Below, in pieces: positions 19,017 through 44,429 of a stretch of DNA of 64,000 nucleotides; positions within the stretch are counted from its first letter, which is position 1, and the number at the start of each line of letters is the position of its first letter. The notes under the pieces were generated by a model. It saw nothing but the letters and a program-made list of their open reading frames with translations, made no database searches and was not told the DNA's origin. The DNA comes from Candidatus Moraniibacteriota bacterium. Its GTDB lineage: Bacteria; Patescibacteriota; Minisyncoccia; Moranbacterales; GCA-2747515. The stretch is taken from NCBI GenBank assembly GCA_016699795.1, contig CP065011.1, positions 482,474 through 546,473 on the forward strand, given 5' to 3'. Made by a program: the position numbers and the translations under genes.

Positions 19017-21473
19017 TTATACTGTCGTTGCTGCACTTAATTCATCCCCTGCTTTTGGACGCATAATACGAACTCCCTGTGTAGATCTACCCAAAAGAGG
19101 AATAGTTTTGAGAGCAATTCGAATTATTTGTCCTTTCTTCGTTATGATAATCAAATCTTCTTCAAGATCTTCTTTATAAACAACGCTAGCCCAAACTAAA
19201 TTACCTGTTTTTGGTGTTATATTAGCAGTTCGAATACCTCCCCCACCTCTTTTTTGGATTTTATATTGAGAGAATTTACTTCTTTTTCCATAGCCTTCTT
19301 TTGTAATAATAAGAAGTTCAGGATGTTTATCTAGATCTTGGATAACGTCCATGCCCACAACCTCATCGCCATGATGCAATCTTATTCCGCGAACACCAGC
19401 AGCCGTTCTTCCCATAGACCGCACATCCTCTTCGAAAAATCGAATAGCTTGTCCTTTGGCCGTTGTTAAGACTATTTCATTATTTCCAAATGTTGGTTTT
19501 ACCCAACCCAAAGTATCTTTTTCATCCAAGCGAATCGCAATAAGACCACTTCTTCGAACCTTCATCAAATCCAATATAGCTGTTTTCTTTATAACACCCT
19601 GAGCTGTGGCCATAACTAAATATTTATAAGCATGGTCTTTTCCAAAAGCAACGAATTCAGTTATATATTCACTTGGCGATAACTGTAGAAAATTAACCAT
19701 TGATTGCCCCTTAGAAACTCTAGATGATTCTGGTAATTCATAGGCTTTTAATTGAAATACCTTACCAAAATTTGTAAAGAAAAATAAATCATCATGCATC
19801 ATCACCGTTAACACTCTACGAATAAGATCATTTTCTTTAGTTGCAGCACCAATAACTCCCTTACCTCCTCTATGTTGAACACGATAGGTTGAAGGATCCA
19901 TTCTTTTCACATAGCCATCCCTTGATAAAGCTATTATAACCTCTTGGTTAGGTATGAGATCTTCTTGATTAATATCTCCAACACCTTGCGATACTACTTT
20001 AGTTTTTCGAGCATCCCCATAAGTCTTTTTTATTTCACGATATTCATCTTTTACAATACCCATAAGAGTCTCTCGTGAATCAAGAATACTCTGGAGTTCT
20101 TTCATTAAAATTTTCTTTTCTTCTAATTCATCTTCAATCTTTTTTCGTTCCAAACCAGCCAATGTCTGCAAACGCATTTCCAAAATTGCTGAAGCCTGTT
20201 TATCTGAAAATTGAAAAGAATTAACAAGATTTACATGAGCCTCTTCTTTTGAGGGCGACTTTTTTATAGTCTCTATAATCTTATTTATATGATCAAGTGC
20301 CTTTTTTAATCCCTCCAAAATATGTGCTCGATCTTTCGCTTTTTGAAGATCAAACTTTGTCCTTCTAAGAACAACTTCTTCTCTGTGTTTTAAATGCGCC
20401 TCTAAGACTGTTTTCAGATTAAGTACTTTTGGTTCTATTCCATCAACCAAAGCCAGCATATTTACATTAAAATTCTTTTGCAGATCTGTCATTGCATACA
20501 ATCTATTTAAGACTTTCTTGGGATAAGCGTCTTTCTTTAACTCTACAACAACACGAACTCCGTCCCTATCAGATTCATCTCGAAGATCCTTAATTCCTGT
20601 CATTTTTCCCTCATGAACTAGATTAGCAATTTTCTGTAAAAAATCAGCTTTATTTGTGGCATAGGTCATTTCAGAAATAATAATATGAAATACTCCATCA
20701 CGAACCTCCACAATTTCAGCTTTACCTCGCATTGCAATCTTTCCCCTACCCGTGCCATAAGCCTCTCGAATATCTTCTCGCCCAAAAATAATTCCTCCTG
20801 TAGGAAAATCTGGTCCTTTTATAAATTCCATAAGATCATCAACTCCTGCATCAGCATTATCCACAAGATATACAAGAGCATCCACAAGTTCTCCTAAATT
20901 ATGAGGAGGTATATTCGTAGCCATACCCACAGCTATTCCAACACTCCCATTAAGAAGAAGTTGTGGTAATTTAGAAGGAAGAACTGAAGGTTCTTTATGA
21001 ACACCATCGAAATTTGGAACAAAGTTAACAGTTTCTTTTTCAATATCAAAAAGCATTTCTTCTGCTATCTTCTGCAATTTTGCTTCAGTATAACGATAAG
21101 CAGCAGCGCTATCCCCATCCATTGATCCAAAGTTACCTTGACCCCAAATTAATGGGTACCTCAAAGAAAAATCTTGCGCCATTCGAACCATTGAATCGTA
21201 TACAGCAGTATCTCCGTGTGGGTGATATTTTCCAAGAACATCTCCAACTACTGTGGCTGATTTTCTAAATTTTGCACTTGATTTTAAACCCGAAGTCCAC
21301 AGTGAATAAAGAATTCTTCTGTGTACTGGCTTAAGACCATCTCGAACATCTGGCAATGCTCGAGAAACAATCACACTCATAGCATAATCAAGGTATGATT
21401 GTTGAATTTCATCAACAATAGACTTATCTTTAATATTTTCAGAAAATAAAGATTTTTCCGTTTCTTCTTTCAT
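19017..21473 (-). CDS. gyrA: DNA gyrase subunit A
   Basis: 818 aa. N-terminal [30 protein letters not shown] with active-site Tyr region. C-terminal beta-pinwheel repeats. Confidence 0.95.
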
Positions 21474-21474: not shown

Positions 21475-21825
21475 CTAGTTTTTCTCTCTTATTTGATCAG
21501 TATTTGAAATATTTAAATTTTGTTGTTCATCTTCTGATTTTACGTTTTTATCATCATATTGAGTTTCTAACTGCTGTAAGGTGTTATATTTCAATTCCTC
21601 TGTTTCTTTATATATTTCCTTACCTCCTTCCATTAATTCTTTTTGAGGCAAAATATTTTCCAAGTTTTTTAATTGAAAAATAATTTGCATTTTTTGACTT
21701 GTAGAAACAAGCCAAATAACAACAATAAAAAACATACTCACAGAGACATAGGCGAGAACATATCTTTTTCTTATATATTCAGGTTTTTCTTTAATATTTT
21801 GAATATGTTTTGTAATAAAAAACAT
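21475..21825 (-). CDS. small single-TM hypothetical protein
   Basis: 116-aa ORF whose stop abuts the gyrA start. One hydrophobic helix. No homology recognised. Confidence 0.3.
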
Positions 21826-21853: not shown

Positions 21854-22507
21854 TTACAGAATTTGTGGTAATAATTCAACAATATCCATATTTCTATTAA
21901 CAAGATCTCTCGATTTTATTGTTAATTTAGGAAGAACTTCACAATCTTTGATTGCCATCTCAGAATAAAAAGCATCTTTTGTATTCTCTTCTCCGTATGA
22001 TTGTGGTATTCCATAATACATAGGAATTATTATTTTTGGCTCTATGGAGCGTATAAAATCCGTTGCTCTCTTAACATCCATAGCTTCTAATCCTCCTATG
22101 GGAATCATTAAAATATCACAATTATTCACTTGTGCATACACCTCTTTAGGAACATTACCACAGGTTCCTAAATGAACAATTTTTATATCCTCAACTTCTA
22201 TAAAATATCCTATTTTATCCCCCATGCAAACACCATCTCTATTTTCACAATCATATCCTATAATATTAACTCTGTGATGTGAATATTCTCCTGGTAAATG
22301 GATAGACATTGGCTTTCCTTTTATTTTAGATAAGGAAGATTTCTTTTTTGATGAAGTTAGAAATATAATATCTGCCTCTGTATATAAACCTTTCAAACCC
22401 GCTGTTTTTTCATCAGGATCAATAAAAAAGGTAAGTTCTTCAGCTAATCGACCCTCAGGTCGAGTTTGAATTTTAAAACTTGTACCGCCAAAATACTGAA
22501 TAATCAT
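21854..22507 (-). CDS. metallo-beta-lactamase-fold metal-dependent hydrolase (UPF0173-like)
   Basis: 217 aa. His/Asp-containing blocks (HLGTCGNVP, LMIPIGG) consistent with MBL fold. Assignment by overall pattern only. Confidence 0.5.
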   Translation of the reverse strand: MIIQYFGGTSFKIQTRPEGRLAEELTFFIDPDEKTAGLKGLYTEADIIFLTSSKKKSSLSKIKGKPMSIHLPGEYSHHRVNIIGYDCENRDGVCMGDKIGYFIEVEDIKIVHLGTCGNVPKEVYAQVNNCDILMIPIGGLEAMDVKRATDFIRSIEPKIIIPMYYGIPQSYGEENTKDAFYSEMAIKDCEVLPKLTIKSRDLVNRNMDIVELLPQIL

Positions 22508-22610
22508 AAAAAAGTCCTTAATTTACTTTTAAAGTATAAAAAAGTTAGCACATCTCACAATTTAAAGCAACTTACAAAAATATCTCTTTCACAATAAATT
22601 CTTTCTTTTG

Positions 22611-22840
22611 TCAATACTTATATTGTATTGTTCTATGTGGAACATTGTTTTGTATTTAAATTATTTATATTGCATTGTTCTATGTGGAACATTGTTTTGT
22701 ATTTAAATTATTTATATTGCATTGTTCTATGTGGAACATTGTTTTGTATTTAAATTATTTATATTGCATTGTTCTATGTGGAACATTGTTTTGTATTTAA
22801 ATTATTTATATTGCATTGTTCTATGTGGAACTCCTTTGTG
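22611..22840. repeat. 47-nt direct tandem repeat, ~5 copies, each with internal palindrome TGTTC-N6-GAACA
   Basis: Core TCTATGTGGAAC recurs at 22632, 22679, 22726, 22773 and 22820 (period exactly 47). Unit is ATTATTTATATTGCATTGTTCTATGTGGAACATTGTTTTGTATTTAA. First copy has 1 substitution and the last copy is truncated. Confidence 0.9.
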
Positions 22841-22890
22841 TTTTTTGGATACTTTATAAACACATTATCTTTAATTTGTCAATTATTAAA

Positions 22891-22919
22891 TTGACTTTTT
22901 GTTTTATATTCCATAGTAT
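22891..22919 (+). promoter_or_regulatory. putative sigma70-type promoter for the tRNA-Ala/tRNA-Arg genes
   Basis: TTGACT (22891-22896), 17-nt spacer, TAGTAT (22914-22919). Lies ~15 nt upstream of the tRNA-Ala 5' end. Confidence 0.35.
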
Positions 22920-22933: not shown

Positions 22934-23006
22934 GGGGATATAGCTTAGCTGGTAGAGCGCTTCCATGGCATGGAAGAGGTCGAGGGTTCGAGTCCCTCTA
23001 TCTCCA
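22934..23006 (+). tRNA. tRNA-Ala (anticodon GGC), CCA not encoded
   Basis: Acceptor GGGGATA/TATCTCC (one G-U). Anticodon stem CTTCC/GGAAG with loop ATGGCAT. T-arm GAGGG TTCGAGT CCCTC. Discriminator A. Confidence 0.85.
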
Positions 23007-23030
23007 CACCACACCAAAATCCAACAAAAA

Positions 23031-23102
23031 GCCCTTGTAGTTCAATGGATAGAACAGCACACTCCTAACGTGCTAATGTAGGTTCGATTCCTACCGAGGG
23101 CA
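23031..23102 (+). tRNA. tRNA-Arg (anticodon CCU), CCA not encoded
   Basis: Acceptor GCCCTTG/CGAGGGC. D-stem GTTC/GAAC. Anticodon loop CTCCTAA. T-arm GTAGG TTCGATT CCTAC. Confidence 0.8.
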
Positions 23103-23160
23103 CTCTCAATAATAATTCATCTTTACACGTTATTTTTTAGAATAAAACCTTTTAACCTTT

Positions 23161-29287: not shown

Positions 29288-31498
29288 ATGAAACAAATAC
29301 AAAATAAAAAAAGTTATTTCATTTTCTTTTCCACCTTCCTTTTCTTACTAGTTATTTTTCTTCCTACAATACTTTACGCTGCGCCAGGAGAGCCTAGTCT
29401 TGTAGATAAAGTTTTCAGCCCTATTATTAGCCTTTTACTCGGTATTCTTTGGTTAATAACTTCTCTTATTAATGTCGCGGCTGTTTTATTTGGCTATGTT
29501 GTTGATGCTAAAAGCTTTTCAACTATAATGAATAATCCAGCTATAAAGACTTCATGGATTGTTGTTCGTGATGTCCTTAATATCGCATTTATTCTTGTTC
29601 TTCTTTTTAGTGCTTTCGCTACTATATTTCAAATTGAAAAATTCCATGTAAAAAAAATCCTTCTTACTCTTATCATCATGGCTCTTTTAGTAAATTTCAG
29701 CTATCCCATATCGAGATTTATTATCGATACCGCAAACATCCCCATGTATCATATCGCCACTGTTGTTTTTGGCGAGGGCGCTGATTGGATGGCTGTTCTA
29801 GCGGGAGAGTCTGGATTAGGGGATCTCTTCAAGCCTGCAGCAGAATTTGAAAATCAACAATATAAAGATCTTTTAGCTGCTATTCTTTTTTCATTCATTT
29901 TTCTCATAACTTTAATGGCTCTTTCTGTTTTATTCCTCATTCGATTGGTAGTTCTTATTATACTTGTCATCTTTTCTCCTCTCGGTTTCGTAGCGGCAAT
30001 TCTCCCTTCAACCAAAAATTATGCTGATGATTATTGGACTGCCTTAATGAAAAATGCATTTTTTGGTCCCATTATGATGCTCATGCTCGCTCTCAGTATT
30101 TTTATTCTCAAGGCATTCCAAAGCGCAAGTATTGAAGGATTTGCTTCAGGAAATGCAGCTTCTACTTCTGGTGAAACAGCTCTTGCTCAATGGGCATTTG
30201 CTTTTGTTCCTGTTGTCATTCTTTGGGGAGGTATAATTTGGTCCCAAAAACTTGGTGCTGTAGGGGCAAGTTTAGTTATGAGTAAAGTTGATAGTTATTC
30301 CAGAAAAAGTTGGGGTGGTGTAAAACCCATTCTCTGGGCGGGAGATCGTGTAACAGGGGGGCTTACTAAAGGGATAGATGGGGGATTACGTTTTTTAGGA
30401 TATAATCGAGCTGCTCGAGTCAATTCAGCCTACAATCAAGCGAAAGCAGTTCCATCAGCAGTAAAAAAAGTTTATTGGGATGATAAAGTAGCCGCGAGAA
30501 AACAAGAAGCAGAAGATGCTCGAAACCTTGTAACAGGAAGATTACCTCTTAGCGGAACAACTGTTCGAAATGCCCACGAAAGACTCGAACAACAACAAAT
30601 ACAAAGAAAAAAGAAAGAAAATGAAGAGAAAAATTATACCATGTCCAACTATCGCAATGATTTAGCTGAATCGAACGACAAAGTAACCCGAATCGCGGCT
30701 GCTCAAGGAATGGCTCAAAAAGGATTTACGAACATTCCAGACATACAGAGAGCGCTCCAAGCTAGTAGAGGAGATTTGGATACGCAACAGTTAATCTTAC
30801 AAAAAATTCCCAAAGAATTAGCGTCGCAAATCAATCCAGATCAAATTCGTGGCTTAAGTAATAACCTCACAAATATAAATACTCTCCAAGAAAATCAACC
30901 AGGTCTCTCAAATGCTGACGCGCAGGCGGAAATTGATACCCTTAGAAACACGTTCGATTCCAAACTAAGAGAGAACCTTAAAGTAAAAAATACAGATGCT
31001 CTCGTTCAAAGTTTGTCGAATATACAAGGAAATACTAGACTCTCTTCCCAAATTTTAAAAAATGCGGATGCTGGAGCATTAAGAAATCTTAATACACAAC
31101 AAACAATAGCTCTTAGAAATACGCTAACTGACAGAGCCCGCATTCAAACTATTAATCCCCATCTCGATGCAACAGAAGTTGATGCTGAAATTGAGGAAGT
31201 AACACGAAGTCTTAGAAATGCTTTACGGGATGCGGGAAGAATAGATCTCTATATCGATAGTGAACTTGATCCAGCATATGTTGGTACTCGCACAAGAGAG
31301 CAAATCGTCAATACAACAGTCAGGAGTATGGATAATAAATCTCTTGGAAGCCAAAATGAGGCGTTCTATAGAAGTCAGGCTGTTCAAAACAATTTTGCAA
31401 ATATGACGCTTAACAATCCTCAAAGATTTAATGATGTAATGACACATATGAGCAATGAAAATCTAAACCATCTGCAAAGTCCAACTCTTCTCCCTTAA
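29288..31498 (+). CDS. VirB6/TrbL/PrgH-like polytopic membrane protein with ~330-aa hydrophilic C-terminal domain
   Basis: 736 aa. Signal peptide then ~8 TM helices. Long polar repeat/coiled-coil C-terminus. Architecture and position in a locus with VirB3-like and VirB4 genes suggest a T4SS channel component. Confidence 0.45.
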   Translation: MKQIQNKKSYFIFFSTFLFLLVIFLPTILYAAPGEPSLVDKVFSPIISLLLGILWLITSLINVAAVLFGYVVDAKSFSTIMNNPAIKTSWIVVRDVLNIAFILVLLFSAFATIFQIEKFHVKKILLTLIIMALLVNFSYPISRFIIDTANIPMYHIATVVFGEGADWMAVLAGESGLGDLFKPAAEFENQQYKDLLAAILFSFIFLITLMALSVLFLIRLVVLIILVIFSPLGFVAAILPSTKNYADDYWTALMKNAFFGPIMMLMLALSIFILKAFQSASIEGFASGNAASTSGETALAQWAFAFVPVVILWGGIIWSQKLGAVGASLVMSKVDSYSRKSWGGVKPILWAGDRVTGGLTKGIDGGLRFLGYNRAARVNSAYNQAKAVPSAVKKVYWDDKVAARKQEAEDARNLVTGRLPLSGTTVRNAHERLEQQQIQRKKKENEEKNYTMSNYRNDLAESNDKVTRIAAAQGMAQKGFTNIPDIQRALQASRGDLDTQQLILQKIPKELASQINPDQIRGLSNNLTNINTLQENQPGLSNADAQAEIDTLRNTFDSKLRENLKVKNTDALVQSLSNIQGNTRLSSQILKNADAGALRNLNTQQTIALRNTLTDRARIQTINPHLDATEVDAEIEEVTRSLRNALRDAGRIDLYIDSELDPAYVGTRTREQIVNTTVRSMDNKSLGSQNEAFYRSQAVQNNFANMTLNNPQRFNDVMTHMSNENLNHLQSPTLLP

Positions 31499-31503
31499 AT
31501 TGT

Positions 31504-32598
31504 ATGCCAAAACAAAAATATCCTTTTTTCTTTTATCCCATGCTTCTCGATAATGAAAAAAATCAAGGCTTTTCAAAAACATTTATCGACCATTGGATGC
31601 GCCAAAAAAAACTCCCCGAAAAAAGGGGTCTTGTTCTTGTTCACAGTAAAACAACCGAATGGATAGCAGAAATTTCAAAAAAATATAATTTTTCCGAAAA
31701 TCAGACAACAAGTCTTTCTCGTATTATTCGTGATTTTGGACTTAATGATATTAAGGAAAATGAAATTCCTTTGCTTATACAAAAAAGTTTCTCTGCTTTT
31801 TCCGAGGAGCAAAAAAAGTTTCTTGAGAATTTTATTGTAAAACTCTTTCAAATAGAGCTTCCTGAAGATACTCTTTATCAAGAAGAAATACCTAAGGAAG
31901 AAAGTAAAGAAAATTCTCTCCCAAAAGAGAGCATACCACAATCTCCAAAACTCACTCTTTTAGAAGCTCTTATTAAGTACCCACGAATAGGTCAGCAACT
32001 CATTACCTCTCAAAACATTGTTATGCGAGGTGCTCAAGAACCTGTTCGTCCTTCCATAAAAAATTGGATTACTCTTTATCAACAAGAAATGGGACCTTCA
32101 CCTCATGAAACTTTTGAAAGGGGAAATTTTCTTTTTCAAAATCAAAATGCTACAAGATTATCCCCGAGAGAACGTGAGTTAATTCATGAAATCCTCAAAT
32201 CTCTCGATGAAAACAAACCCCTTCCTATAAATCAAATTACTCAAGAAATCCGTCTGGATGAGATAATGAGTTCCTCTCAAGGTTCTTTTTCTAAAGAAAA
32301 AACTTCTCCTTCCATACAAACAACTTCGAATCAAAAAAAGGATTTAACTATGAATTCAGGCACGCTATCCCTAAATTCTTCTTCTACAAAAAAAGATAAT
32401 TTGGAGTATCGTTCGGAAGAAAAACCTTCTTATTCAAAACAAGACACTGCAATAGCATCAAATACTCAATCAACTTTTCAAGGATTGCGTATTGGCGGAG
32501 AAAATGATAATTTTTTTTCAAAAAAAACACTGGAAGATTCTCTTAATACTAAAAATATTAGTTTTTCCTCTGGTCAAAAATTCCCCGGAGAAGAATAA
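31504..32598 (+). CDS. hypothetical soluble protein within T4SS-like locus
   Basis: 364 aa with no TM. Ser/Thr/Gln-rich C-terminus. No motif recognised. Confidence 0.4.
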   Translation: MPKQKYPFFFYPMLLDNEKNQGFSKTFIDHWMRQKKLPEKRGLVLVHSKTTEWIAEISKKYNFSENQTTSLSRIIRDFGLNDIKENEIPLLIQKSFSAFSEEQKKFLENFIVKLFQIELPEDTLYQEEIPKEESKENSLPKESIPQSPKLTLLEALIKYPRIGQQLITSQNIVMRGAQEPVRPSIKNWITLYQQEMGPSPHETFERGNFLFQNQNATRLSPRERELIHEILKSLDENKPLPINQITQEIRLDEIMSSSQGSFSKEKTSPSIQTTSNQKKDLTMNSGTLSLNSSSTKKDNLEYRSEEKPSYSKQDTAIASNTQSTFQGLRIGGENDNFFSKKTLEDSLNTKNISFSSGQKFPGEE

Positions 32599-32683
32599 TT
32601 GATAAATTTTATTTTTTCTTATTTTTGTGTTACTCTCTAATACAGTAAGGTATTCTTTTTTTCAAAACAAAAATTATTAGAGT

Positions 32684-33163
32684 ATGATGCGATTTCCTGT
32701 TCCACAATTTATCGGAGTTGAAGATAAGATTGCAGGACCCCTCACATGGAAGCAACTTTATTGGATGATTGCTATGGGAGTATTTCTTCTCCTTCTATGG
32801 AAAGCTTTTTCCCTTATTGTTTTCATCCCTCTTGGTGGACTTGTTGTGAGTATTTTTACAGCATTTGCTTTCTATAAACCATGGGGTCAACCCCTTTCTA
32901 AAATGGTATGGCATGCTATGATATTTCTATTTCGACCCAAAACATATACCTGGCAACAAACACCCACTGCTGCAAAGATCATCGGGGGGGACATTGCCAT
33001 TCCGATAGCTCCAAAAAAAGAAGATCCTAAAAAAACATTACAACGAATACAAGATTATTCAGAAGTTCTTGATAATCCTACAAAGAAAACTTTTTCAGAT
33101 TCAATGGTGACTCCGAAATCAAAACGTGATATACTTTCAATATTCTCAAAAAAAGAAAAATAA
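32684..33163 (+). CDS. VirB3/PrgI-like small two-TM protein
   Basis: 159 aa with two adjacent hydrophobic helices (WMIAMGVFLLLLWKAFSLIVFIPLGGLVVSIFTAFAF). Sits directly upstream of virB4, the conserved virB3-virB4 order. Confidence 0.35.
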   Translation: MMRFPVPQFIGVEDKIAGPLTWKQLYWMIAMGVFLLLLWKAFSLIVFIPLGGLVVSIFTAFAFYKPWGQPLSKMVWHAMIFLFRPKTYTWQQTPTAAKIIGGDIAIPIAPKKEDPKKTLQRIQDYSEVLDNPTKKTFSDSMVTPKSKRDILSIFSKKEK

Positions 33164-33166
33164 CCT

Positions 33167-33874
33167 ATGTCAACAGAAAACCTACATCAGCCAAATCTTT
33201 CTCCAAAAAAACAAGGACCTAGTACTTTAGAGTATGTAGACGTTCAGGAAATTCATGATGGCATTGTAATACTCAGAGATGGCTCTTTTCGAGCTATTTT
33301 AGCTGTTTCTTCTCTTAATTTTGATCTCAAGTCTAGTGATGAACAAGATGCTATTATTTTTCGTTATCAGCAGTTTCTTAACTCTCTTGACTTTCCTCTT
33401 CAGTCCACTATTCATTCTCGAAGAATAAATATCGCACCTTATCTCGAAATGCTCAAAATTCGTGAAGCTGAACAAACAGATGAGCTTATGCGTATGCAAA
33501 TTTATGAATACCGTAATTTTATTAAGAATCTCACAGAAGTTCAAAATATCATGACAAAGTCTTTCTTTGTTGTTGTACCGTTTTTTCCTGTTGAAAAAAC
33601 AAAAAAAGGTATCTTTTCGGAACTTTTTCAAATGTTCAATCAAGATCTTGTTATCAAACACAAACTTGAAAAATTTGAAACTTACAAAAGCCAGCTCTTG
33701 CAAAGAGTTGATCATGTTGTTGCTGGTCTTTCTGGAATGGGGCTACGACTCGCGCTTCTAACCACAGAAGAAACCGTAGAACTTCTTTATAATTCATACA
33801 ATCCATCTCTCTTTAGTATGAATATTATTAATGACATCGAAAGTATGGAAACTCAAAATAGAATAACTCGATAA
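33167..33874 (+). CDS. VirB4 ATPase, N-terminal domain (separate ORF)
   Basis: 235 aa. LEYVDVQEIHDGIVILRDGSFRAILAVSSLNFDLKSSDEQDAIIFRYQQFLNSLDFPLQ matches the N-terminal region of Gram-positive VirB4/TcpF/Orf16-type ATPases. Ends with TAA 2 nt before the next ATG, in a different frame. Confidence 0.6.
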   Translation: MSTENLHQPNLSPKKQGPSTLEYVDVQEIHDGIVILRDGSFRAILAVSSLNFDLKSSDEQDAIIFRYQQFLNSLDFPLQSTIHSRRINIAPYLEMLKIREAEQTDELMRMQIYEYRNFIKNLTEVQNIMTKSFFVVVPFFPVEKTKKGIFSELFQMFNQDLVIKHKLEKFETYKSQLLQRVDHVVAGLSGMGLRLALLTTEETVELLYNSYNPSLFSMNIINDIESMETQNRITR

Positions 33875-33876
33875 AC

Positions 33877-35682
33877 ATGGACAATACTACAACAGAAAAA
33901 AAAGATTATCAGAAAGAAGACGAGCTCTATCAACAAGGAATGTCTTCTGTTCGAGGTTTTATAGCTCCTGCTGCTATGAAAATTTCTTCATCTTTCTTGG
34001 AGATGGGGAGTATCTTTTCTCGCACACTCTTTGTTATGACTTATCCGAAATATCTTAATAACGGTTGGTTTTCTCCCATAATTAATATTGATTTTTCCAT
34101 GGATATTGCCATGTTTATGCATCCCATGGATTCTTCTATTGTTCTCAAAGATCTTCAAAAACAATCGGCTCGAATTTATTCTCAAATTCATCTAGAAGCG
34201 GAAGGTGGTAAAGTTCGTAATCCTATTCTAGAAGCAGCTTTAGAGAATGTTGAGCGTTTACGAGATGATCTTCAAACTGGTACTGAAAGATTTTTTCGAT
34301 TTGGTATGTATCTTACGCTTTACGCATCATCCTCACAAGAATTAAATGATATAACGAATCAAATAGAATCTATTTTAGAAGCTCAGATGGTCTATTCCAA
34401 ACCCGCAGTTTTACGAATGGATGAGGGATATTCTTCTACCATACCATTAGCTAATGATGAGCTTGATTTAGCAAATAATCTTAACACCTCTCCTGTATCA
34501 ACAACCTTTCCTTTTATCTCTTCAGAACTTTCTTCTAATGAAGGTATTCTTTATGGAATAAATCGTCATAATAATAGCCTCGTTCTCTTCGATCGTTTTC
34601 ACATGGAGAACGCGAATATGGTTATTTTTGCAAAATCAGGTGCTGGAAAAAGTTATACTGTCAAACTTGAGATTCTTCGATCTCTTATGTTCGGAACTAC
34701 TGTTCATATTATTGACCCAGAAAATGAATATCAACATCTTTGTGGGGCTGTTGGAGGAACCTATGTGCCCATTTCACTTAACTCCTCCTATCACATTAAT
34801 CCTCTTGATCTTCCTAAGGTTGAGCCCGGAAAAGATGATCCTGAAGGAATTTTCCGAAGTCATGTAGCCTCTATAATCGGACTTCTTCATCTTATGCTTG
34901 GTTCCATAACTCCGGAAGAAGATTCTTTACTCGACCGTTCGATACGAGAAGCTTATGCCATAAGAGATATCACTCCTCATTCTAATTTTTCTATACTCAC
35001 AAGAGAACAAATGCCCACTATGAGTGATGTTCAGAATGTTCTTTCTAATGTACAGGGTGCTCAATCCCTCGCTGCACGTCTAGAAAAATATACTGAGGGA
35101 ATCTTTTCTGGATTTCTTAATCAACATACTAATGTTGAAACGTATGGAATACTCACAACGTATAATATTCGAGATCTGGAAGAAGAACTTCGCCCCATCG
35201 CTATGTATGTTGTTTTACAGCATCTCTGGAATGAAATGCGTCATGAGCTCAAACGAAGACTTCTTGTTATCGATGAAGCTTGGGTTATGATGCAAAATGA
35301 TGATGCAGCTTCTTTTGTTTTTGGTATTGCTAAAAGATGTCGAAAATACTACACAGGATTGACTACTATAACACAAGATATTGCTGATTTTATGAGCTCC
35401 CGTTATGGAAAACCTATTGTCACAAACTCATCTATTCAATTTCTTCTTCGTCAATCACCTGCATCTATTGATGTTATTCAAGATACTTTTTATCTTACAG
35501 ATCAAGAAAAATTTCTCCTCCTTGAAAGTAATGTAGGGGAAGGAATTTTCTTTGCTGGCCTCAAACATGTTGCTATACGTGTCGTCGCTTCTTACTCAGA
35601 AGATCAAATTATCACCTCAAATCCTCAACAAATTCTAGAAATTGAACAGGCTAAATCTGATTTTGAAAAAAGTAATCTCTAA
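33877..35682 (+). CDS. VirB4/TrbE/CagE-family conjugation/T4SS ATPase, catalytic part
   Basis: 601 aa. Walker A IFAKSGAGKSYTV. Walker B RRLLVIDEAWVMMQ. ...YPKYLNNGWFSPIIN... block typical of VirB4. Confidence 0.85.
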   Translation: MDNTTTEKKDYQKEDELYQQGMSSVRGFIAPAAMKISSSFLEMGSIFSRTLFVMTYPKYLNNGWFSPIINIDFSMDIAMFMHPMDSSIVLKDLQKQSARIYSQIHLEAEGGKVRNPILEAALENVERLRDDLQTGTERFFRFGMYLTLYASSSQELNDITNQIESILEAQMVYSKPAVLRMDEGYSSTIPLANDELDLANNLNTSPVSTTFPFISSELSSNEGILYGINRHNNSLVLFDRFHMENANMVIFAKSGAGKSYTVKLEILRSLMFGTTVHIIDPENEYQHLCGAVGGTYVPISLNSSYHINPLDLPKVEPGKDDPEGIFRSHVASIIGLLHLMLGSITPEEDSLLDRSIREAYAIRDITPHSNFSILTREQMPTMSDVQNVLSNVQGAQSLAARLEKYTEGIFSGFLNQHTNVETYGILTTYNIRDLEEELRPIAMYVVLQHLWNEMRHELKRRLLVIDEAWVMMQNDDAASFVFGIAKRCRKYYTGLTTITQDIADFMSSRYGKPIVTNSSIQFLLRQSPASIDVIQDTFYLTDQEKFLLLESNVGEGIFFAGLKHVAIRVVASYSEDQIITSNPQQILEIEQAKSDFEKSNL

Positions 35683-35687
35683 ACTCT

Positions 35688-36311
35688 ATGGAAAATGATA
35701 ATTTCCAAAGAGAATTCGAATATCAGCAACAACTCCAAAATCTACAAATCAATCAAAGGATGCGCTCTCAAAAAATAAATGAGAATTTGCAAAGAGGTGA
35801 AAAAACCTTACGCAAAGGATCCAGGATTGTTACTGATTTTAAAGGAATTTCTAAATCAAATCTTCTCAACGTCGTTAAATTAGCGAGAGAACATAGAGAG
35901 GCTATTAAGTATGGGGATTTTTCTGTTTTTTTTCTTCCTTTTGTTCTCGCTCTAGGAAAAGACGTGCCTCTTGACATGCTTGGGAATATTCCTATCTTTG
36001 GGCAACTTATAACAGCTATTCCTAGTTTTGCTATAACATTGTATCTTTTTGTATTTCTTTTTGGACATGGCTTGTGGTGGCGTAAAAGACTTTTACGAGC
36101 ATTACTCAAAATTTTACTTTTTTTACTTGATTATCTTCCTTTTCTCAATTTTCTACCTTGGACAACTTTGGGTGTTTTTCTTATTTATCGCGATGCCAAA
36201 AAAGACAAACGTGTAGCGGAAGAAGCTGAAAGAAAATTATTAGAAGAAGATAAAAAACAAAGATTACAAAATCGAAGACGTTTAGCACAAGCACAAGATT
36301 CGTTTATTTAA
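35688..36311 (+). CDS. hypothetical membrane protein (3 TM) in T4SS-like locus
   Basis: 207 aa. Polar N-terminus, three hydrophobic helices and a basic/acidic coiled C-tail. Confidence 0.4.
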   Translation: MENDNFQREFEYQQQLQNLQINQRMRSQKINENLQRGEKTLRKGSRIVTDFKGISKSNLLNVVKLAREHREAIKYGDFSVFFLPFVLALGKDVPLDMLGNIPIFGQLITAIPSFAITLYLFVFLFGHGLWWRKRLLRALLKILLFLLDYLPFLNFLPWTTLGVFLIYRDAKKDKRVAEEAERKLLEEDKKQRLQNRRRLAQAQDSFI

Positions 36312-36328
36312 TTAATTATTACCTTTTT

Positions 36329-36994
36329 ATGATTATTAAAAAAGAAATATTTCGATTTCTCTTCATTATCTTCGTAGCCGTTCTTGCTATGTTTTTTACT
36401 TTCCGATTTACTTCTAATGGTATTTTTGAAGGAATTCTTATTTATTTTATGTTTTTCTTCCTCTTTCCCTTATTATTTATTCTTTTTGTTCTCAAAGAAA
36501 AACTCACAAACTTCGGTTTTAAAATGAATATTTCCAAAACATCTCTCATTTGGTTTTCTGGAATACTCTTTGGTGCGGTATTCTTTTTCTCTTTATTTTT
36601 ATGGTTTTTTAACAAAGAAACAGAATTTATGCCACCCTCTGTTTTGACAGCATCTTTTTGGCCATTTTTTCTCTATTTTTTCATTTTATTGGGAAGTATT
36701 TCTCTTTTTTATGAAATATTCTTTCGTGGTTTTATCGAGCTTGGAACAAAAAAAATTCTTGGCTATTGGTCAATCCTCTTTCAATGGCTTCTTTTCATTT
36801 CCTTTCTCTATTTTACGAAAGATCTTTTTTTTGAGAATGGTTTTTTTAATTGGTTAATTCTTTTAGATATAACTTCTGCACTCTCATCAGGATTACTTAT
36901 TTATAAAACGGGATCTCTTTTTTTATCATTTCTTTTTTCTTGGTTTTTTGGTATACTTATTTCACTGATTTCGATAATCATCTATACTCTTTAA
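36329..36994 (+). CDS. hypothetical polytopic membrane protein
   Basis: 221 aa with ~6 TM helices. Weak resemblance to CPBP motif 1 (YEIFFRG) but lacks the His motifs. Confidence 0.4.
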   Translation: MIIKKEIFRFLFIIFVAVLAMFFTFRFTSNGIFEGILIYFMFFFLFPLLFILFVLKEKLTNFGFKMNISKTSLIWFSGILFGAVFFFSLFLWFFNKETEFMPPSVLTASFWPFFLYFFILLGSISLFYEIFFRGFIELGTKKILGYWSILFQWLLFISFLYFTKDLFFENGFFNWLILLDITSALSSGLLIYKTGSLFLSFLFSWFFGILISLISIIIYTL

Positions 36995-37037
36995 TAGATT
37001 TGAAAATACAAAAATTATTATTTTTAGAAAAATAAAT

Positions 37038-40000
37038 ATGCGCACAAGAAAAATTTCACGAATATTTGCATTTTTTCTTTTGATCAGCCTTAATATTACT
37101 TATATTTCTCCCGTTTTTGCCCAATTTAGTGGTCTTATTGAGGAAGCTGCGAGTATTATTGAGAGACGTTATCATCTCAATCTTGGATCCATACAAAACC
37201 AGGGTGAGTATTTTAATGTTTCCGATCAGAAAAAACTTGCTCCCGAACTTATTATGAATTTCACCCCAACAGATCCGAAGCCTGGGCAAGAACTTACAGC
37301 GAAATCTTTTCCTATGTATTTCGAAAATAATAAAGAAGAATTATATTATACATGGTATCTACAAAAAGAAGGTTGTGATGATCTAGATTCTAAAAATAAT
37401 TTAGAAAAATGTGATGCCGATGGAGATGGTACGCTTACCATTGAAGATTGGAAGGTGGAAGCTTCCCGTATAATTGCTAATAGCGTTATTGAAAGAGATG
37501 AAATTAAATATGACAATGATGATGATAATGATGGATTTGCTTATGTCCATACTGGTAAAAAAGTAGCTGTCTATGGTGGGGCTGCTCGAAGGCAAATACT
37601 TGAACGATGTTATATTCTGGATCGAGAAACTGGAGAACAACATGAATTAATTAAAGGAAAGGCTCCAGATGGAACTCCCGGAAATAATCAAAATCCATTC
37701 GATTGTGATCTGACAACACATAACGTTCGTTGTCTCGATCGTGCTGCTACACCCTCTGGATGTAGTTTACCTACTTGTTTTTCACATCCTTCACCCTATT
37801 TTACAGCGTTAGCTCCTGATTGTCTCTCTGATAATAAAATTTCTTGTGTAAGAGGAAAACCCTATTGTATAGCAAAAATCTATACACTTGATGATGACCC
37901 CGCGACTTATTTAGAAAAAGAACAATGTCATGATGACTACCCTGACTTTTGTGGCTCTCTTTATATAGATGCTAAAGAGTTAACTTCTTGTGATAATGGA
38001 GGTAATAATGGAAGTACTTATGCGACAGCTGGCTGTAAACACCTTTTTCCCAATGCTAAAGGAAAAGAATTTATAACAAACAACAAACAGGGGACTTCAG
38101 TCAATGAAGTTACAGGGGATGGGGAATACGAATTACAAGAAGAAAAATTTTGGGTTACCGATCCTCATAACGATGATACCGCCAACACAGGAAATGGTGA
38201 TGAATCCAATATTGTTGGTATGGGCATAGACACTTTTACATGGAATTATCAATTAGGCGATAAGGTTGGTTTGGTTATCGAAGGAACTTCCCAAATTCCA
38301 ACTAAATATGATAATCATTCCAAAATGATTATGTGGGCTTTTTCTAAAAATGATTGTCCCGTAACAGGAAAGGGTGTTTATTATCCCCAGGTAAAAGACT
38401 ATGCCGTTAAAATCCATACTACTACAATGGATCTTGATAGTTGTCTTGAAAAAAATCTTATCGATCCTCGAGAAGGGGGTCAAAAAAATAATATCGATGT
38501 AAGCTTGGTATATTCTCCTGAAAAACCAATGAATAATTCTCGTGTTGTTGGTGGTGAAGATACTGCTCCAGATAAAGATGATAGCCTTGGTTTTGGCGAA
38601 ACACTTACGATTAATTCTTCTATTTCAAATTCAAAAAAAGACGAGTCTCATATTTCTTATACCTGGAAAGTTTTTATTAGCAAAGATGGGACTTTCGATC
38701 CTAGAAAATATGTAAGGGAATCGGATCCTATTAAAACGGGAGATGAATCTACCGCAGGATGGGTTGAAATAACAAAAGAGCTTGTAAAATATAAACTCGT
38801 CGATCTCGTTGAGGGAAATAATATTTCAGATTTAGATATATCTCTCAATATAACTGAAAAGCTTTTAAAAGAAGCTGATCCTTCTCTAACTATTGAAAAG
38901 GTTTTTCCTGATTCTTTAGGAAATATTGGACATTTGCGAGTACGTCTTTATGTAAAAGAAGAATTTGCACCCGATGTATCTGCTGATGGAGTTTCTACGA
39001 TTATAATACCCGTTAATAATAGCGGGAAGAGACTTACCTCCTCATTAGCATTTCTTGATGATATAAAACCTAAAACTTTCATTAATGAAGATCCTAAATC
39101 TACAGCTAATAATAAAAAAGTTCTTATCTGTGAAGATAAACTTACTCTTGCTTCTGGCATTTGTTATGTAACCAAAAATGAAGTTATCGCTGCTGAATTA
39201 GGAAAGTTGGAAAATGAAGATGCTACTGAAAAACTTACTAATTTCTCATGGGAGCTTGACGGGAAACCCCTTCTTTGTGATAAGAATGTTTCTAGAAAAT
39301 ATTGTGAGGATGACAAACAAACTCGATACAATTTTTTTGCTATCACAGGAAAACCAGGAGAGCGTCATTCTTTAACACTAACAGCATTAGAAGAAGTAAC
39401 TGGTCAAGTAAAAACATTTACACAAACCTATGAAGTTGTCGATCCTTTTATAGAAATAATCCCCTTTGATGATAATGTTTGGCCTAAATATCTTGGAGCT
39501 TATCGAGACGCTCAAGGTAAATATCATGAAGATATAAGCACTGAAGTTTTTCAAGGTTATTTTGGGGACTCTGCCTATCTACAGGCTGTATTTTTTCCTG
39601 ATTTCTTGAAAAAAAGAGCTCGAAAACAATGGCTCTGCTCATCAAATCTTTGCGATACTACTCACATGGAGATTGGCGCAAATGAACTTCCTACCGTTTA
39701 TTTCCCTATGATAGATCCTCCGGGACATACTTATAATGTATCTATGGAAGCGATTTATCAACAGAACAGGGAAGTACGAGAGGCTATGCAAAGAATATGG
39801 GGAATGCGTATATTTGAAACTACTGATTATTGGATAAAGAAGGCTGTTCGTATTGAAGTTCTTGAAAATAATGAAGAGGAAGATATAGCTCTTTTAACTC
39901 CAAAAACATTTTTTGCCTCTGTTCTTTCAAACACCCCTAAACATATTTGGTTTGCAACGCAAGCATTTTTAAGCATTCTCGTTTCTATATTCATATTAGG

Positions 40001-40040
40001 AATTCTTTATTCTTTAGGAAGATCTAATCGTTCATCATAA
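37038..40040 (+). CDS. large Cys-rich cell-surface protein with signal peptide and C-terminal TM anchor
   Basis: 1000 aa. N-terminal signal (MRTRKISRIFAFFLLISLNITYISPVFAQ). Many Cys. Ca-binding-like CDADGDGTLTIEDW. C-terminal hydrophobic anchor FLSILVSIFILGILYSL followed by a basic tail. Confidence 0.6.
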   Translation: MRTRKISRIFAFFLLISLNITYISPVFAQFSGLIEEAASIIERRYHLNLGSIQNQGEYFNVSDQKKLAPELIMNFTPTDPKPGQELTAKSFPMYFENNKEELYYTWYLQKEGCDDLDSKNNLEKCDADGDGTLTIEDWKVEASRIIANSVIERDEIKYDNDDDNDGFAYVHTGKKVAVYGGAARRQILERCYILDRETGEQHELIKGKAPDGTPGNNQNPFDCDLTTHNVRCLDRAATPSGCSLPTCFSHPSPYFTALAPDCLSDNKISCVRGKPYCIAKIYTLDDDPATYLEKEQCHDDYPDFCGSLYIDAKELTSCDNGGNNGSTYATAGCKHLFPNAKGKEFITNNKQGTSVNEVTGDGEYELQEEKFWVTDPHNDDTANTGNGDESNIVGMGIDTFTWNYQLGDKVGLVIEGTSQIPTKYDNHSKMIMWAFSKNDCPVTGKGVYYPQVKDYAVKIHTTTMDLDSCLEKNLIDPREGGQKNNIDVSLVYSPEKPMNNSRVVGGEDTAPDKDDSLGFGETLTINSSISNSKKDESHISYTWKVFISKDGTFDPRKYVRESDPIKTGDESTAGWVEITKELVKYKLVDLVEGNNISDLDISLNITEKLLKEADPSLTIEKVFPDSLGNIGHLRVRLYVKEEFAPDVSADGVSTIIIPVNNSGKRLTSSLAFLDDIKPKTFINEDPKSTANNKKVLICEDKLTLASGICYVTKNEVIAAELGKLENEDATEKLTNFSWELDGKPLLCDKNVSRKYCEDDKQTRYNFFAITGKPGERHSLTLTALEEVTGQVKTFTQTYEVVDPFIEIIPFDDNVWPKYLGAYRDAQGKYHEDISTEVFQGYFGDSAYLQAVFFPDFLKKRARKQWLCSSNLCDTTHMEIGANELPTVYFPMIDPPGHTYNVSMEAIYQQNREVREAMQRIWGMRIFETTDYWIKKAVRIEVLENNEEEDIALLTPKTFFASVLSNTPKHIWFATQAFLSILVSIFILGILYSLGRSNRSS

Positions 40041-40059
40041 ACAAAAAAAACATTTTGCA

Positions 40060-41196
40060 ATGAAAAATATTTTTATTATAAGCTCTGTTCTCTTTAGTAT
40101 TACTCTACTTTCTTGGTTATTATTTGTTTTTTTTGTTAAAGATCCCAAAGAGATAGAAGAGAAGCCTTCTCCCATTAGTGAGATTCAAGAAAAAGAAGAA
40201 CCCAAAGAAACCAGCTCGCCTTTTCAAATTTTTAGTGATTTCCCTATTCTTTCTCCACTTCTTTCGGAAGACGGTTCTTCTATTTTTGGTTATCACAAAG
40301 AAACGTCCACACTTTATTCTCTTAATGTAGAAAGTGGAGAAAAAAAAGTCCTTCAAGACACACAACTCACAAATCCCCTCATTGCTCTCTGGGCAAAAGA
40401 TCCTCGTATTTCCATACTCAAAACTTCTCCCCAAAAAAATGCTGAGTATTTTCTCGTGGATAGTAATTCTCAAACAACAACACCTCTTCCTTCCAATATT
40501 ACCTATTTAAATTGGGATAATCTATCTGAAAAAATTATTTTCATTCAAAGAAAAAAGCCTGAGGAGATACTTTTTTCCACGGCAAAACCTGATGGATCAG
40601 AACCAAAAGAACTTCTTACTATCACAGAGAAAGGAAGAATTTCTCTTATTCCTGTACCACAATCCCCAGCTATAGCTTATTGGCCACAAAGCGCTAATAC
40701 AAAAATTTCACCACTTTTTCATATTAATCTTAGTTCCGGCACAAAAACGGAAATATTTTCAGGAAGATATGGGGGAGATTATCTCTATTCTCCTGATGGA
40801 GAAAAAATTCTTCTTAGTTGGTCTCCAGAAAAAAACAGTTCCAAACTCACACTCGCTCTCTTAAATAAATATGGCGGTCAATATAAAGATCTTGGCCTTC
40901 CTACATTAGTATCTAAATGTGCATGGGGAAAAAATACTGTACATATTTATTGCGCTGTTCCCACAGGAATACCCCAAACAGCTGTTATGCCCGATGATTA
41001 TCTTAATGGAAAAGTATCTACCGTAGATTCTCTTTGGAAAATAAACGTAGAAACTGGAAAAAAGGAACGTGTCGTAGAACTCTCTGATATAAAAGAAACT
41101 TTTGATGTTACTAATATTTTTATCGATGCAAGCGAGCAATTTCTTTATTTTACGAACAAATCCACAAATATCCTCTATAAAGTAAAACTCCCTTAA
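40060..41196 (+). CDS. membrane-anchored PD40/TolB-like beta-propeller protein
   Basis: 378 aa. N-terminal TM. Repeated ...SPDGEKILLSWSP..., ...KPDGSEP... blocks typical of PD40 propeller blades. Confidence 0.5.
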   Translation: MKNIFIISSVLFSITLLSWLLFVFFVKDPKEIEEKPSPISEIQEKEEPKETSSPFQIFSDFPILSPLLSEDGSSIFGYHKETSTLYSLNVESGEKKVLQDTQLTNPLIALWAKDPRISILKTSPQKNAEYFLVDSNSQTTTPLPSNITYLNWDNLSEKIIFIQRKKPEEILFSTAKPDGSEPKELLTITEKGRISLIPVPQSPAIAYWPQSANTKISPLFHINLSSGTKTEIFSGRYGGDYLYSPDGEKILLSWSPEKNSSKLTLALLNKYGGQYKDLGLPTLVSKCAWGKNTVHIYCAVPTGIPQTAVMPDDYLNGKVSTVDSLWKINVETGKKERVVELSDIKETFDVTNIFIDASEQFLYFTNKSTNILYKVKLP

Positions 41197-41211
41197 TCCA
41201 ATAGCTCTCTT

Positions 41212-42489
41212 TTGAAAATAAGAAAAAATATAGTAACCTCTATGTTTAAAAATAAAATATTTAAAAAAATAAACATCCTTCTTTTGAATATCAAAGAAAG
41301 AATTATTTTTTTTGTTTTTATTCTATCTTTTTTTATTATTCAAAGCCCCTCTGTTTTTGCCATGACTGAAGCTGAATGCGAAGCAAAAAGTGGTGCTGGT
41401 CCGAATGAGAAAGCTTATTGCTCTTCTACTATGTGCTCTACTGGGGAAGGGAAAGAGACTTATTTAGGAGAATGTGATTCACTTATCTCGCCACATTGTT
41501 GTAAAAAAGGAGATTACACTACAACTACAAGTTGCGCTGCTTTGGGTGGTACTTGTAGTGGCCACGCTAGTTGCCCCAGCCTCACCTCTCGTGTTGGTCT
41601 CTGTGATAAATTAGCTGATGGTGGAACTGATACTTGTTGTAAACCAACAAAGATTGTTTATCCTGATGGATCAACACCAAAAGCCAATTCAACCTCTTCT
41701 TTCGACTATACCCCCCTCGAACCCATTCCAGGTGCTACAAATGATACATCTACTCTTGCAGGATTTCTTGAAGGTCTTTATTTTTTTGTTATGTGGAGTG
41801 CAGGAGTGATGGCTATGTTCATGATAGGGTTGGGAGGTTTCTGGTATCTTACTTCAGCAGGAAACACTTCTCGTGTAGGAGAAGCTAAAACTATTATTGT
41901 TAATGCTCTTTTGGGACTTTTAGTTCTTACGTTTACATGGCTTATTCTCTACATCATTAATCCAGATCTTACTAAGTTAGATTGGAGTAGCTTGGAGGAA
42001 ATTCTCATTGATCGAAAGGGGTCCTCCTTTAACAATCCTCCTCAAATTGGTCCAGGAAATCCTAATAATGGTAATGGATCTTGTAGCCCAGTTTCCAATG
42101 GACCTTGTTCGGTTGAAAATTTAAAACAAACCTGTCTTTCTTCAAATGTAAATGTATTTTCACAAATATGTAATAAAGAAAGTAGTGGAGACCCTCTAAA
42201 ACCAAGTGTCGTTGATCGTTGTAAAAAAAGAGGTAATAATGAGCCCTTTTCTATAGGTCTTTATCAAATCAATCTTACTGTTCATACTATAGGCGGTCTT
42301 AATTGTCCTTCTGCCTTCAATGGAAAAAATTATGATTGTATAGTAATTAATAAGGATCTTTATGAAAAATGCGTTAAGGCGGCACAAGATCCCAATCTTA
42401 ATATAAAAAAGGCTTGCGAAATTTCAGGTAATGGTAATAATATAGGTCCTTGGAAAAATACAGCTATTACTTGCGGTCTTTATAAATAA
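41212..42489 (+). CDS. chimeric protein: signal peptide + Cys-rich domain + T4SS-pilin-like two-TM hairpin + lytic transglycosylase (SLT/VirB1-like) domain
   Basis: 425 aa. Hairpin LAGFLEGLYFFVMWSAGVMAMFMIGLGGFWYLTSAGNTSRVGEAKTIIVNALLGLLVLTFTWLILYIINP resembles TrbC/VirB2-type pilins of Gram-positive/CPR T4SS. C-terminal ...ICNKESSGDPLKPSVVD...FSIGLYQINL... resembles the SLT catalytic E-S and GLMQI motifs. Confidence 0.6.
   Translation: MKIRKNIVTSMFKNKIFKKINILLLNIKERIIFFVFILSFFIIQSPSVFAMTEAECEAKSGAGPNEKAYCSSTMCSTGEGKETYLGECDSLISPHCCKKGDYTTTTSCAALGGTCSGHASCPSLTSRVGLCDKLADGGTDTCCKPTKIVYPDGSTPKANSTSSFDYTPLEPIPGATNDTSTLAGFLEGLYFFVMWSAGVMAMFMIGLGGFWYLTSAGNTSRVGEAKTIIVNALLGLLVLTFTWLILYIINPDLTKLDWSSLEEILIDRKGSSFNNPPQIGPGNPNNGNGSCSPVSNGPCSVENLKQTCLSSNVNVFSQICNKESSGDPLKPSVVDRCKKRGNNEPFSIGLYQINLTVHTIGGLNCPSAFNGKNYDCIVINKDLYEKCVKAAQDPNLNIKKACEISGNGNNIGPWKNTAITCGLYK
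41695..42003 (+). repeat. 309-nt cassette, nucleotide-identical to 43614..43922 (pilin-like hairpin-coding segment), copy 1
   Basis: Direct comparison of the two stretches shows identity over 309 nt, encoding SSFDYTPLEPIPGATNDT...DWSSLEEI. Flanking sequence on both sides is unrelated. Confidence 0.85.
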
Positions 42490-42499
42490 AAATAGCTTT

Positions 42500-43054: not shown

Positions 43055-43205
43055 AGATTTCACTATTATTATAAATCCCTTCATAAAAACTTCTTCTAAC
43101 ATACTTTATTTTTCTTTCCAAAAAACGCATTGTCTTTTATAATTTAAAATAAGATATTTCAAATTATAAAATTAAATTGTCTTATTGTTTTTAAAATAAA
43201 ATAAT

Positions 43206-44420: not shown

Positions 44421-44429
44421 CTTAAAAAT

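Follow-up and report, generated by a model that had tools for sequence, protein, structure and literature searches.

A tandem array of short palindromes, found at positions 22618-22831 of a 64,000-nt (64-kb) stretch of the chromosome of a Candidatus Moraniibacteriota bacterium (the whole stretch is called here the window), is likely to be a tandemly amplified parS, that is to say a ParB-loading (centromere) array standing at the conserved origin-proximal centromere locus of its lineage. The array is a 47-nt repeat, it occupies the place where relatives carry clusters of exact parS sites, the motif of these relatives adjoins parAB genes elsewhere, and the locus lies near the replication origin. 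This is a known kind of element with an ordinary function in an understudied host, a member of the Candidate Phyla Radiation (CPR, or Patescibacteria), the twist being a degenerate site re-amplified at a canonical centromere locus. An unexplained repeat is thereby turned into a recognisable centromere-like locus, by which the origin domain of this closed CPR genome can be located.

A 47-nt tandem array of parS-like palindromes

Tandem Repeats Finder, run on the 64 kb, and a repeat search revealed a single array without strand at 22618-22831 (period 47, unit TTATATTGCATTGTTCTATGTGGAACATTGTTTTGTATTTAAATTAT, 99% matches, no indels, score 421), comprising 4.6 copies as in the assembly and being by far the top-scoring repeat of the window. 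The initial annotation had described five exact 47-nt repeats, each containing the palindrome TGTTC-N6-GAACA. The 47-nt period is real and copies 2-4 are identical, whereas copy 1 (22618-22664) carries one substitution (TTGTAT compared to TTGCAT in the other copies) and copy 5 is partial, covering 26 nt before it departs from the repeat after GGAAC. Likewise, the complete palindrome is present four times, at 22629, 22676, 22723 and 22770, whereas the fifth core (22817) ends in GAACT. Since copies 2-4 are identical, the recent expansion proposed previously is borne out. Within the 64 kb, occurrences of the motif were found in the array only, and a 25-nt core probe matched the array alone where dinucleotide-preserving shuffles led to an expectation of 0.00.

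The near-identity of the core to the universal chromosomal parS, seen when the two sequences are compared, had been missed in the initial annotation. Cores 1 to 4 (22629-22644, 22676-22691, 22723-22738 and 22770-22785, none assigned to a strand) share the sequence TGTTCTATGTGGAACA, which matches the parS motif TGTTCCACGTGGAACA at 14 of 16 positions. The two mismatches, C6T and C8T, are both located in the left arm, and the right arm, GTGGAACA, is perfect. Core 5 (22817-22832, without strand), which reads TGTTCTATGTGGAACT, shows three mismatches (13/16) and has a GGAACT ending that is also seen in the closest relative, in its last site, TGTTCCACGTGGAACT. A scan of the window for TGTTCCACGTGGAACA with up to three mismatches returned the five array cores and nothing else; the array is therefore the only candidate parS seen in these 64 kb around oriC. 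The earlier idea of an iterated palindromic protein-binding site is retained, with the core appearing from its sequence to be a near-copy of parS. The 47-nt period corresponds to about 4.5 helical turns, as noted before, so that successive sites alternate between faces of the DNA and neighbouring dimers would sit on opposite faces.

Exact parS clusters at the same locus in relatives

The loci of relatives, designated by L numbers, were reached through GyrA homologues and synteny. All lineages that keep the order gyrA, small membrane protein and metallo-β-lactamase (MBL) fold gene on one side and tRNA-Ala, tRNA-Arg, rbfA and nrnA on the other carry a TGTTCCACGTGGAACA cluster in the intergenic region. 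In L002, L012, L013, L014 and L135, these orthologous sites are exact or have one mismatch and number 3 to 8 per lineage, a range that includes the 4-5 sites found within 214 bp in the window. The closest relative, L002 (GyrA 88%), has four sites, one perfect and three with one mismatch, spaced by 93, 109-110 and 92-94 nt. Six sites spaced by 66-72 nt are present in L012 (GyrA 81%), three spaced by 95 and 145 nt in L013 (GyrA 79%), eight, all perfect and spaced by 49-71 nt, in L014 (GyrA 81%), and eight in L135 (GyrA 72%). In L012-L014 and L135, the flanks that were retrieved contained no further TGTTCCACGTGGAACA site with up to two mismatches.

Apart from these sites, the orthologous intergenic regions cannot be aligned, and the sequence between sites is not conserved among relatives. 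Three 8-mers, GTGGAACA, TTTGTCAA and TTTTATAT, are common to the regions of the window, L002, L012, L013 and L014 (shuffle mean 0.28); TTTTATAT is of low complexity, which leaves the right arm of the core and TTTGTCAA as the only non-trivial ones. The cluster adjoins tRNA-Ala in L012, L013, L014 and L135, and in the first three of these some 40-50 nt separate the end of the cluster from the tRNA -35 hexamer downstream. In the window, 426 nt lie between the MBL start codon and tRNA-Ala, compared to about 600-1,100 nt in L012, L013, L014 and L135. In Moranbacteria, a dense and fast-evolving parS cluster is thus found at a conserved place beside gyrA and tRNA-Ala.

It should be noted that all contigs of the 88%-GyrA relative (L002-L010, first 600-780 nt) end or diverge right after the fourth parS (...TTTGTCAAGTATTGTAAC), with at least three different continuations, in which tRNA-Ala was not seen. 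Assembly breaks caused by a repeat were considered and rejected, as the contigs diverge past the last parS into these continuations, a pattern suggestive of heterogeneity between strains or of an inserted element.

The motif of the relatives matches chromosomal parS

The parS consensus of Pseudomonas aeruginosa and Pseudomonas putida agrees with TGTTCCACGTGGAACA in every letter (PMC7022226 Table 1; PMC4368675). The consensus of Myxococcus xanthus has been reported as TGTTCCACGTGGAACG (PMC3899335) and the general chromosomal consensus as TGTTNCACGTGAAACA (PMC7022226). Judged by sequence, the 16-mer of the relatives is the parS that experiments have validated in Pseudomonas and Myxococcus. JGI metagenome contigs were scanned for two perfect TGTTCCACGTGGAACA sites 44-74 nt apart, which yielded at least 120 loci, and par genes were sought by tblastn with Bacillus subtilis Soj and Spo0J as queries. 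Among the loci listed, soj/spo0J homologues were present in the fetched stretch of 52 out of 120, at most 500 nt from the sites in 51 of these 52 (median 152 nt). Because par genes adjoin it in these metagenome loci, we take the TGTTCCACGTGGAACA motif to be parS.

Regarding the two substitutions of the window cores, C6T (four times) and C8T (three times) occur as single changes in natural sites next to perfect sites, and positions 3 and 7 of the half-site are invariant. The parS5 site of P. aeruginosa, TGTTCTACATGGAACA, which shares C6T and a broken central CG with the window cores, is bound specifically by P. aeruginosa ParB (PMC4368675), and the half-site GTTCCAC is bound by some ParB proteins (PMC7022226). 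This half-site is intact in every copy of the window, as are the right half-site as a whole and the outer left arm. On the basis of these comparisons, the window cores would fall at the weak end of the range of sites to which ParB of P. aeruginosa binds in vitro.

Proposed function of the array and points against it

By analogy with characterised ParABS systems (reviewed in PMC7022226), ParB (Spo0J) dimers would recognise each 16-bp core through their helix-turn-helix domains and, once bound, would close as a clamp dependent on cytidine triphosphate (CTP) and slide outward onto the flanking DNA. A single partition complex would then form in the origin domain, about 30 kb from oriC, and would recruit SMC and, if present, ParA, leading to the separation of sister origins. 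The genome would have to encode a ParB able to bind the two-mismatch variant; binding to each site is probably weak, and multiplicity may compensate for it. As to its origin, an ancestral cluster of several sites could have been largely lost, and the one surviving site amplified into the array by slippage or unequal exchange.

Several results weigh against this proposal. No ParB or ParA gene was found in the 64 kb (Pfam, all open reading frames (ORFs) of at least 100 aa), and a jackhmmer search with Spo0J, which covered every stop-to-stop ORF of 60 aa or more, gave no match in the window. In ten related lineages, no parB was found within about 6-10 kb of gyrA, no database search aimed at a Moranbacteria ParB having been made, and linkage to par genes in low-GC CPR-like loci amounts to 1 of 18 among the matches listed. 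The cores themselves raise doubts. In all five, the two mismatches fall inside the CACGTG centre, in one arm, and an intact CACGTG core was judged important in P. aeruginosa (PMC4368675). In that species, ParB binding to two-mismatch parS sites is specific but weak, the four strong sites could not be replaced in segregation by any of the six weak ones (parS5-parS10), and parS5 is the weakest of the ten sites (PMC4368675). Alternatively, the core may have arisen by a 9-nt deletion that fused the flank GTTCTATGTG to GAACA, leaving one true half-site: L014 reads TTTGTCAAGTTCTATGTGTTCCACGTGGAACA, and removing TTCCACGTG yields the GTTCTATGTGGAACA of the window. Moreover, identical copies are evidence of recent expansion and not of selection, and better parS sites may lie in the other 1.12 Mb of the genome, outside the 64 kb read.

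Alternative explanations

The same difficulties would be accounted for if the array were a decayed centromere relic, in which most of the ancestral parS cluster disappeared and one mutated site was left and was neutrally amplified by replication slippage with no useful ParB binding, segregation then using other sites or no ParABS system at all. We consider this unlikely, albeit deserving of attention: it agrees with the two core mismatches in every copy, with the poor quality of such sites as ParB substrates in P. aeruginosa (PMC4368675), with the shortening of the intergenic region to 426 nt, with the recent expansion indicated by identical copies and with the absence of a visible parB gene from the window. 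By contrast, the right half-site and the outer left arm remain intact in all copies, C6T and C8T are each tolerated singly in natural clusters, the array brings the site number back into the 3-8 range of relatives, and no other parS with up to three mismatches exists in the 64 kb around oriC. Much less probable is an array of operators to which a local transcription factor would bind, or the activator/UP array for the tRNA promoter put forward in the initial annotation, acting on the divergent MBL and tRNA-Ala/tRNA-Arg-rbfA-nrnA promoters. The array is indeed flanked by a minus-strand TTGACA (22609-22614) and by TTGACT-17-TAGTAT (22891-22919), and the clusters of L012-L014 and L135 come as close to the tRNA genes as described above. 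However, the same 16-mer clusters beside dnaA in L094, in or next to a Wzy_C gene in L136 and L139, and in L137; the nearest tRNA gene is 2.4-6.4 kb away in L136, L094 and L137, and the L090 and L051 loci contain none. For this reason the cluster is not an accessory of the tRNA promoter, and that earlier suggestion is abandoned. The motif is, in addition, exactly parS in the relatives, parAB operons accompany it in 52/120 of the metagenome loci listed, and no transcription-factor gene is adjacent to the array. ParB complexes silence neighbouring genes in P. aeruginosa (PMC7022226), and a regulatory side effect of the array is therefore possible.

The two further alternatives appear extremely improbable. 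A DnaA-box cluster (secondary origin or datA/DARS-like titration site) or a set of replication iterons, the latter also raised initially, could explain why the minus-strand reading of the right arm, TGTTCCACA, is one base off TTTTCCACA, a box variant found twice upstream of dnaA, as well as the AT-rich spacers between cores and the divergence of gene orientation at this intergenic region. Yet the box TTATCCACA with up to one mismatch is absent from the array, the arm of the relatives, TGTTCCACG, has three mismatches to the DnaA box, and the sites of the relatives are perfect palindromes, which fit a dimeric helix-turn-helix protein rather than DnaA. Besides, the oriC region (dnaA, dnaN and DnaA boxes, at 52.8-55.9 kb, with the flattening of the skew) is 30 kb away, and the Pfam scan detected no rep gene next to the array, which speaks against the iteron proposal. 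Hardly any credit can be given, finally, to an RNA-producing array, be it similar to clustered regularly interspaced short palindromic repeats (CRISPR), an array of tandem interspaced guide RNAs (TIGR), a structured leader or a small RNA. It was correctly stated at the outset that this pure tandem repeat without unique spacers is not a CRISPR. TIGR arrays are common in CPR bacteria and may contain palindromes (PMC12045711), and the plus strand (22600-22850) folds as one long hairpin (-78.8 kcal/mol, z = -13). Nevertheless, TIGR-Tas systems are defined by variable 8-12-nt spacers between conserved repeats and by an adjacent tas (Nop-domain) gene (PMC12045711), whereas the copies here are identical with no variable spacers, the neighbours are MBL, gyrA, tRNAs, rbfA and nrnA, and no Nop-type (Tas) or Cas family was found (Pfam, window ORFs of at least 100 aa). 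The minus strand folds at z = -2.8 only, the sequence between sites varies among relatives, and Rfam (E ≤ 1) gave only tRNAs above threshold, the rest being noise (e.g., mir-743, 29.7 bits compared to a gathering threshold of 67). The strong plus-strand fold is probably a by-product of the tandem palindromes, since a palindrome in tandem copies, aided by G.U pairing, folds in this way. The two C to T changes of the core keep G.U pairing on the plus strand only.

Comparison with known partition sites

The amplified parS proposed here shares with chromosomal parS of ParABS systems the 16-bp palindrome family, the origin-proximal position and the clustering of several sites, and its relatives have the exact Pseudomonas-type site. 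It differs from them by the two C to T changes in one arm, by head-to-tail 47-nt copies in place of independent sites, by the absence of a parAB operon near the array and by its CPR host. In M. xanthus, 22 parS sites, mostly near-perfect and about 140 bp apart, occupy 3 kb near oriC, about 4 kb from parAB (PMC3899335). That cluster is likewise a dense, multi-site chromosomal centromere of the CC/GG parS subtype; the 47-bp period, the identical units and the degenerate core are particular to the window. In its architecture the array resembles sopC of plasmid F, made of 12 tandem 43-bp units, in each of which SopB, a ParB homologue, binds a 16-bp inverted repeat (PMC3597684): both consist of head-to-tail repeats of about 45 bp with one 16-bp ParB-type site per unit and a period of about 4-4.5 helical turns. 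By contrast, the site of sopC is TGGGACCACGGTCCCA and sopC is plasmid-borne, directly beside sopAB, whereas the window array is chromosomal, among housekeeping genes, with 4.6 units and no adjacent partition genes. As for parS5-parS10 and the half-parS (GTTCCAC) of P. aeruginosa, they are two-mismatch derivatives of TGTTCCACGTGGAACA with one intact half-site, like the window cores, but they are single and dispersed, whereas the window repeats a weak site 4-5 times at the canonical centromere locus of the lineage.

It is conceivable, although we find it unlikely, that the species lost its multi-site centromere and rebuilt a sopC-like array from one weakened site, with multiplicity compensating for weakness or with the specificity of ParB shifted to TGTTCTATGTGGAACA. 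If true, nature would here provide an example of centromere turnover in bacteria, within a CPR clade that has dense clusters of 3-11 sites near gyrA or dnaA, unlinked to parAB and in some cases within a Wzy_C gene. No description of ParB/parS in Patescibacteria, CPR, Saccharibacteria or Parcubacteria was found in the open-access literature, and the locus offers a concrete entry point for ParABS experiments in Patescibacteria. For annotation, short palindrome tandem arrays near oriC are worth comparing with parS before they are listed as unknown repeats. A search of genome contigs with the 21-mer ATTGTTCTATGTGGAACATTG gave one single-copy match, in an unrelated gammaproteobacterial metagenome-assembled genome (L001), which was taken as chance.

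Clusters and their duplication elsewhere in the clade

Clade relatives carry overall 3-11 parS sites in 0.2-1.5 kb. Outside the orthologous locus, on low-GC, CPR-like contigs, five sites lie directly upstream of dnaA in L094, where the cluster abuts the gene, and ten lie downstream of gyrA in L117/L096. Eleven sites are found just downstream of gyrA in L136, five of them inside the Wzy_C gene, six about 2-3 kb downstream of gyrA in L139, inside the Wzy_C gene, and four about 10 kb from gyrA in L137.

Tandem duplication inside these clusters is recurrent. A 184-nt unit with three sites is present in 2.1 copies in L014, a unit of about 205 nt is duplicated with 98% identity in L012, duplicates 186 nt apart are 100% identical in L094, and the spacing of sites alternates between 48 and 200 nt in L136. 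True single-site tandem parS repeats were found in L114 (48-nt unit, beside spo0J) and in L024 (74-80-nt unit). The array of the window is the extreme case of the duplications of the clade, with one 47-nt unit and 100% identity between copies. The number of parS sites in the clade thus changes by tandem duplication, whereas in sequence the clade and Proteobacteria have an identical parS.

Gene setting and position relative to the origin

The setting given by the initial annotation, between a minus-strand MBL-fold hydrolase gene and a plus-strand tRNA-Ala/tRNA-Arg-rbfA-nrnA block, was recovered by Pfam and tRNA calls, gene orientation diverging at the intergenic region of the array. The left-hand neighbour, the MBL gene (Lactamase_B_3), spans 21854-22507 on the minus strand. 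It is followed by a small minus-strand ORF (21475-21825), kept in position in all relatives (82-130 aa), and by gyrA (19017-21473), whose product is 100% identical to QQS61763.1; synteny of this three-gene block holds in all relatives. The product of ORF 21475-21825 has one predicted transmembrane helix and no significant family match. As a single-pass membrane protein without a DNA-binding domain, it was discarded as a DNA-binding partner of the array. Facing the MBL gene, TTTGTCAA (22607-22614, minus strand) contains on that strand a -35-like TTGACA (22609-22614), which probably serves the MBL promoter as its -35 hexamer.

On the right-hand side, the promoter-like site TTGACT-17-TAGTAT of the tRNA operon is present at 22891-22919 on the plus strand, separate from the array. 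The gap between the array and the TTGACT at 22891 is 59 nt, instead of the approximately 50 nt given initially. A TTGACT followed 17 nt on by a TAnnnT hexamer is kept in L012, L013 and L014. The genes for tRNA-Ala(GGC) (22934-23007) and tRNA-Arg(CCT) (23031-23103), both on the plus strand, come next, and rbfA and a DHH/DHHA1 (nrnA-like) gene lie downstream on the same strand (Pfam).

The array is origin-proximal but not at oriC, because dnaA, dnaN, the DnaA boxes and the change in skew are located at about 52-56 kb. The origin block comprises jag, yidC and rnpA (50864-52524, minus strand) upstream of dnaA, DnaA boxes at 52843, 52854 and 52956 (through 52964), dnaA (53002-54447, plus strand), which serves as the reference point for oriC outside the array, and dnaN (54748-55890), and the fall of the cumulative GC skew comes to a halt at about 52-54 kb. 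The distance of about 30 kb from the array to oriC represents 2.5% of the 1,186,598-nt (1.19 Mb) chromosome. In the candidate oriC at 52821-52964, upstream of dnaA, two TTTTCCACA boxes and one TTATCCACA box adjoin 2.5 copies of an 11-nt repeat, ATTTCGTATAC. A 22-nt repeat of 2.1 copies, between dnaA and dnaN at 54498-54544, is another candidate oriC feature. The ORFs at 47633-49292 were considered as parA/parB and rejected, as they are glycosyltransferases.

Between the parS locus and the dnaA region, a plus-strand block at 29288-45146 resembles a type IV secretion system (T4SS) or conjugation cluster. It includes PrgI, a TraG/VirB4-like P-loop ATPase, two T4SS-pilin-like proteins and SLT and NlpC/P60 domains, together with several large ORFs without Pfam match.

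Additional features of parS clusters in the clade

The Wzy_C (O-antigen-ligase-like) ORFs with internal parS are located at 14219-15817 in L139, 13126-14064 in L136 and 16012-17433 in L138. Their sites are read in all three frames (CSTWN, FHVE and VPRGT/VSRGT). One of them coincides with a conserved protein motif, ER...L(N/D)VSRGT, and others lie in repeated insert-like segments, such as PLQHKCSTWNILRG, present twice in L139.

In L117 (10976-12473) and L096 (2802-4270), a 154-nt unit repeated three times contains a parS and, at a distance of about 45 nt, a DnaA box of consensus sequence (TTATCCACA / GTGGATAAC), which suggests that DnaA and ParB sites are interleaved in these loci (GyrA 62-68%).

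Finally, the flanks of perfect parS cores are palindromic well beyond the 16 bp, with arms that differ between sites (e.g., aaatagaa|core|ttctattt). This palindromy was observed in all fetched loci, for example in L090 (2456-3200), L051 (1450-1760), L130 (5279) and L037 (1332). The mean extension of the palindrome is 1.4 bp at a GC content of at least 0.45, 1.9 bp between 0.32 and 0.45 and 4.2 bp below 0.32, for an estimated 0.3-0.4 bp by chance. These extended palindromes may have been selected because they allow hairpins or cruciforms to extrude, or may stem from the 'correction' of quasi-palindromes by template switching.

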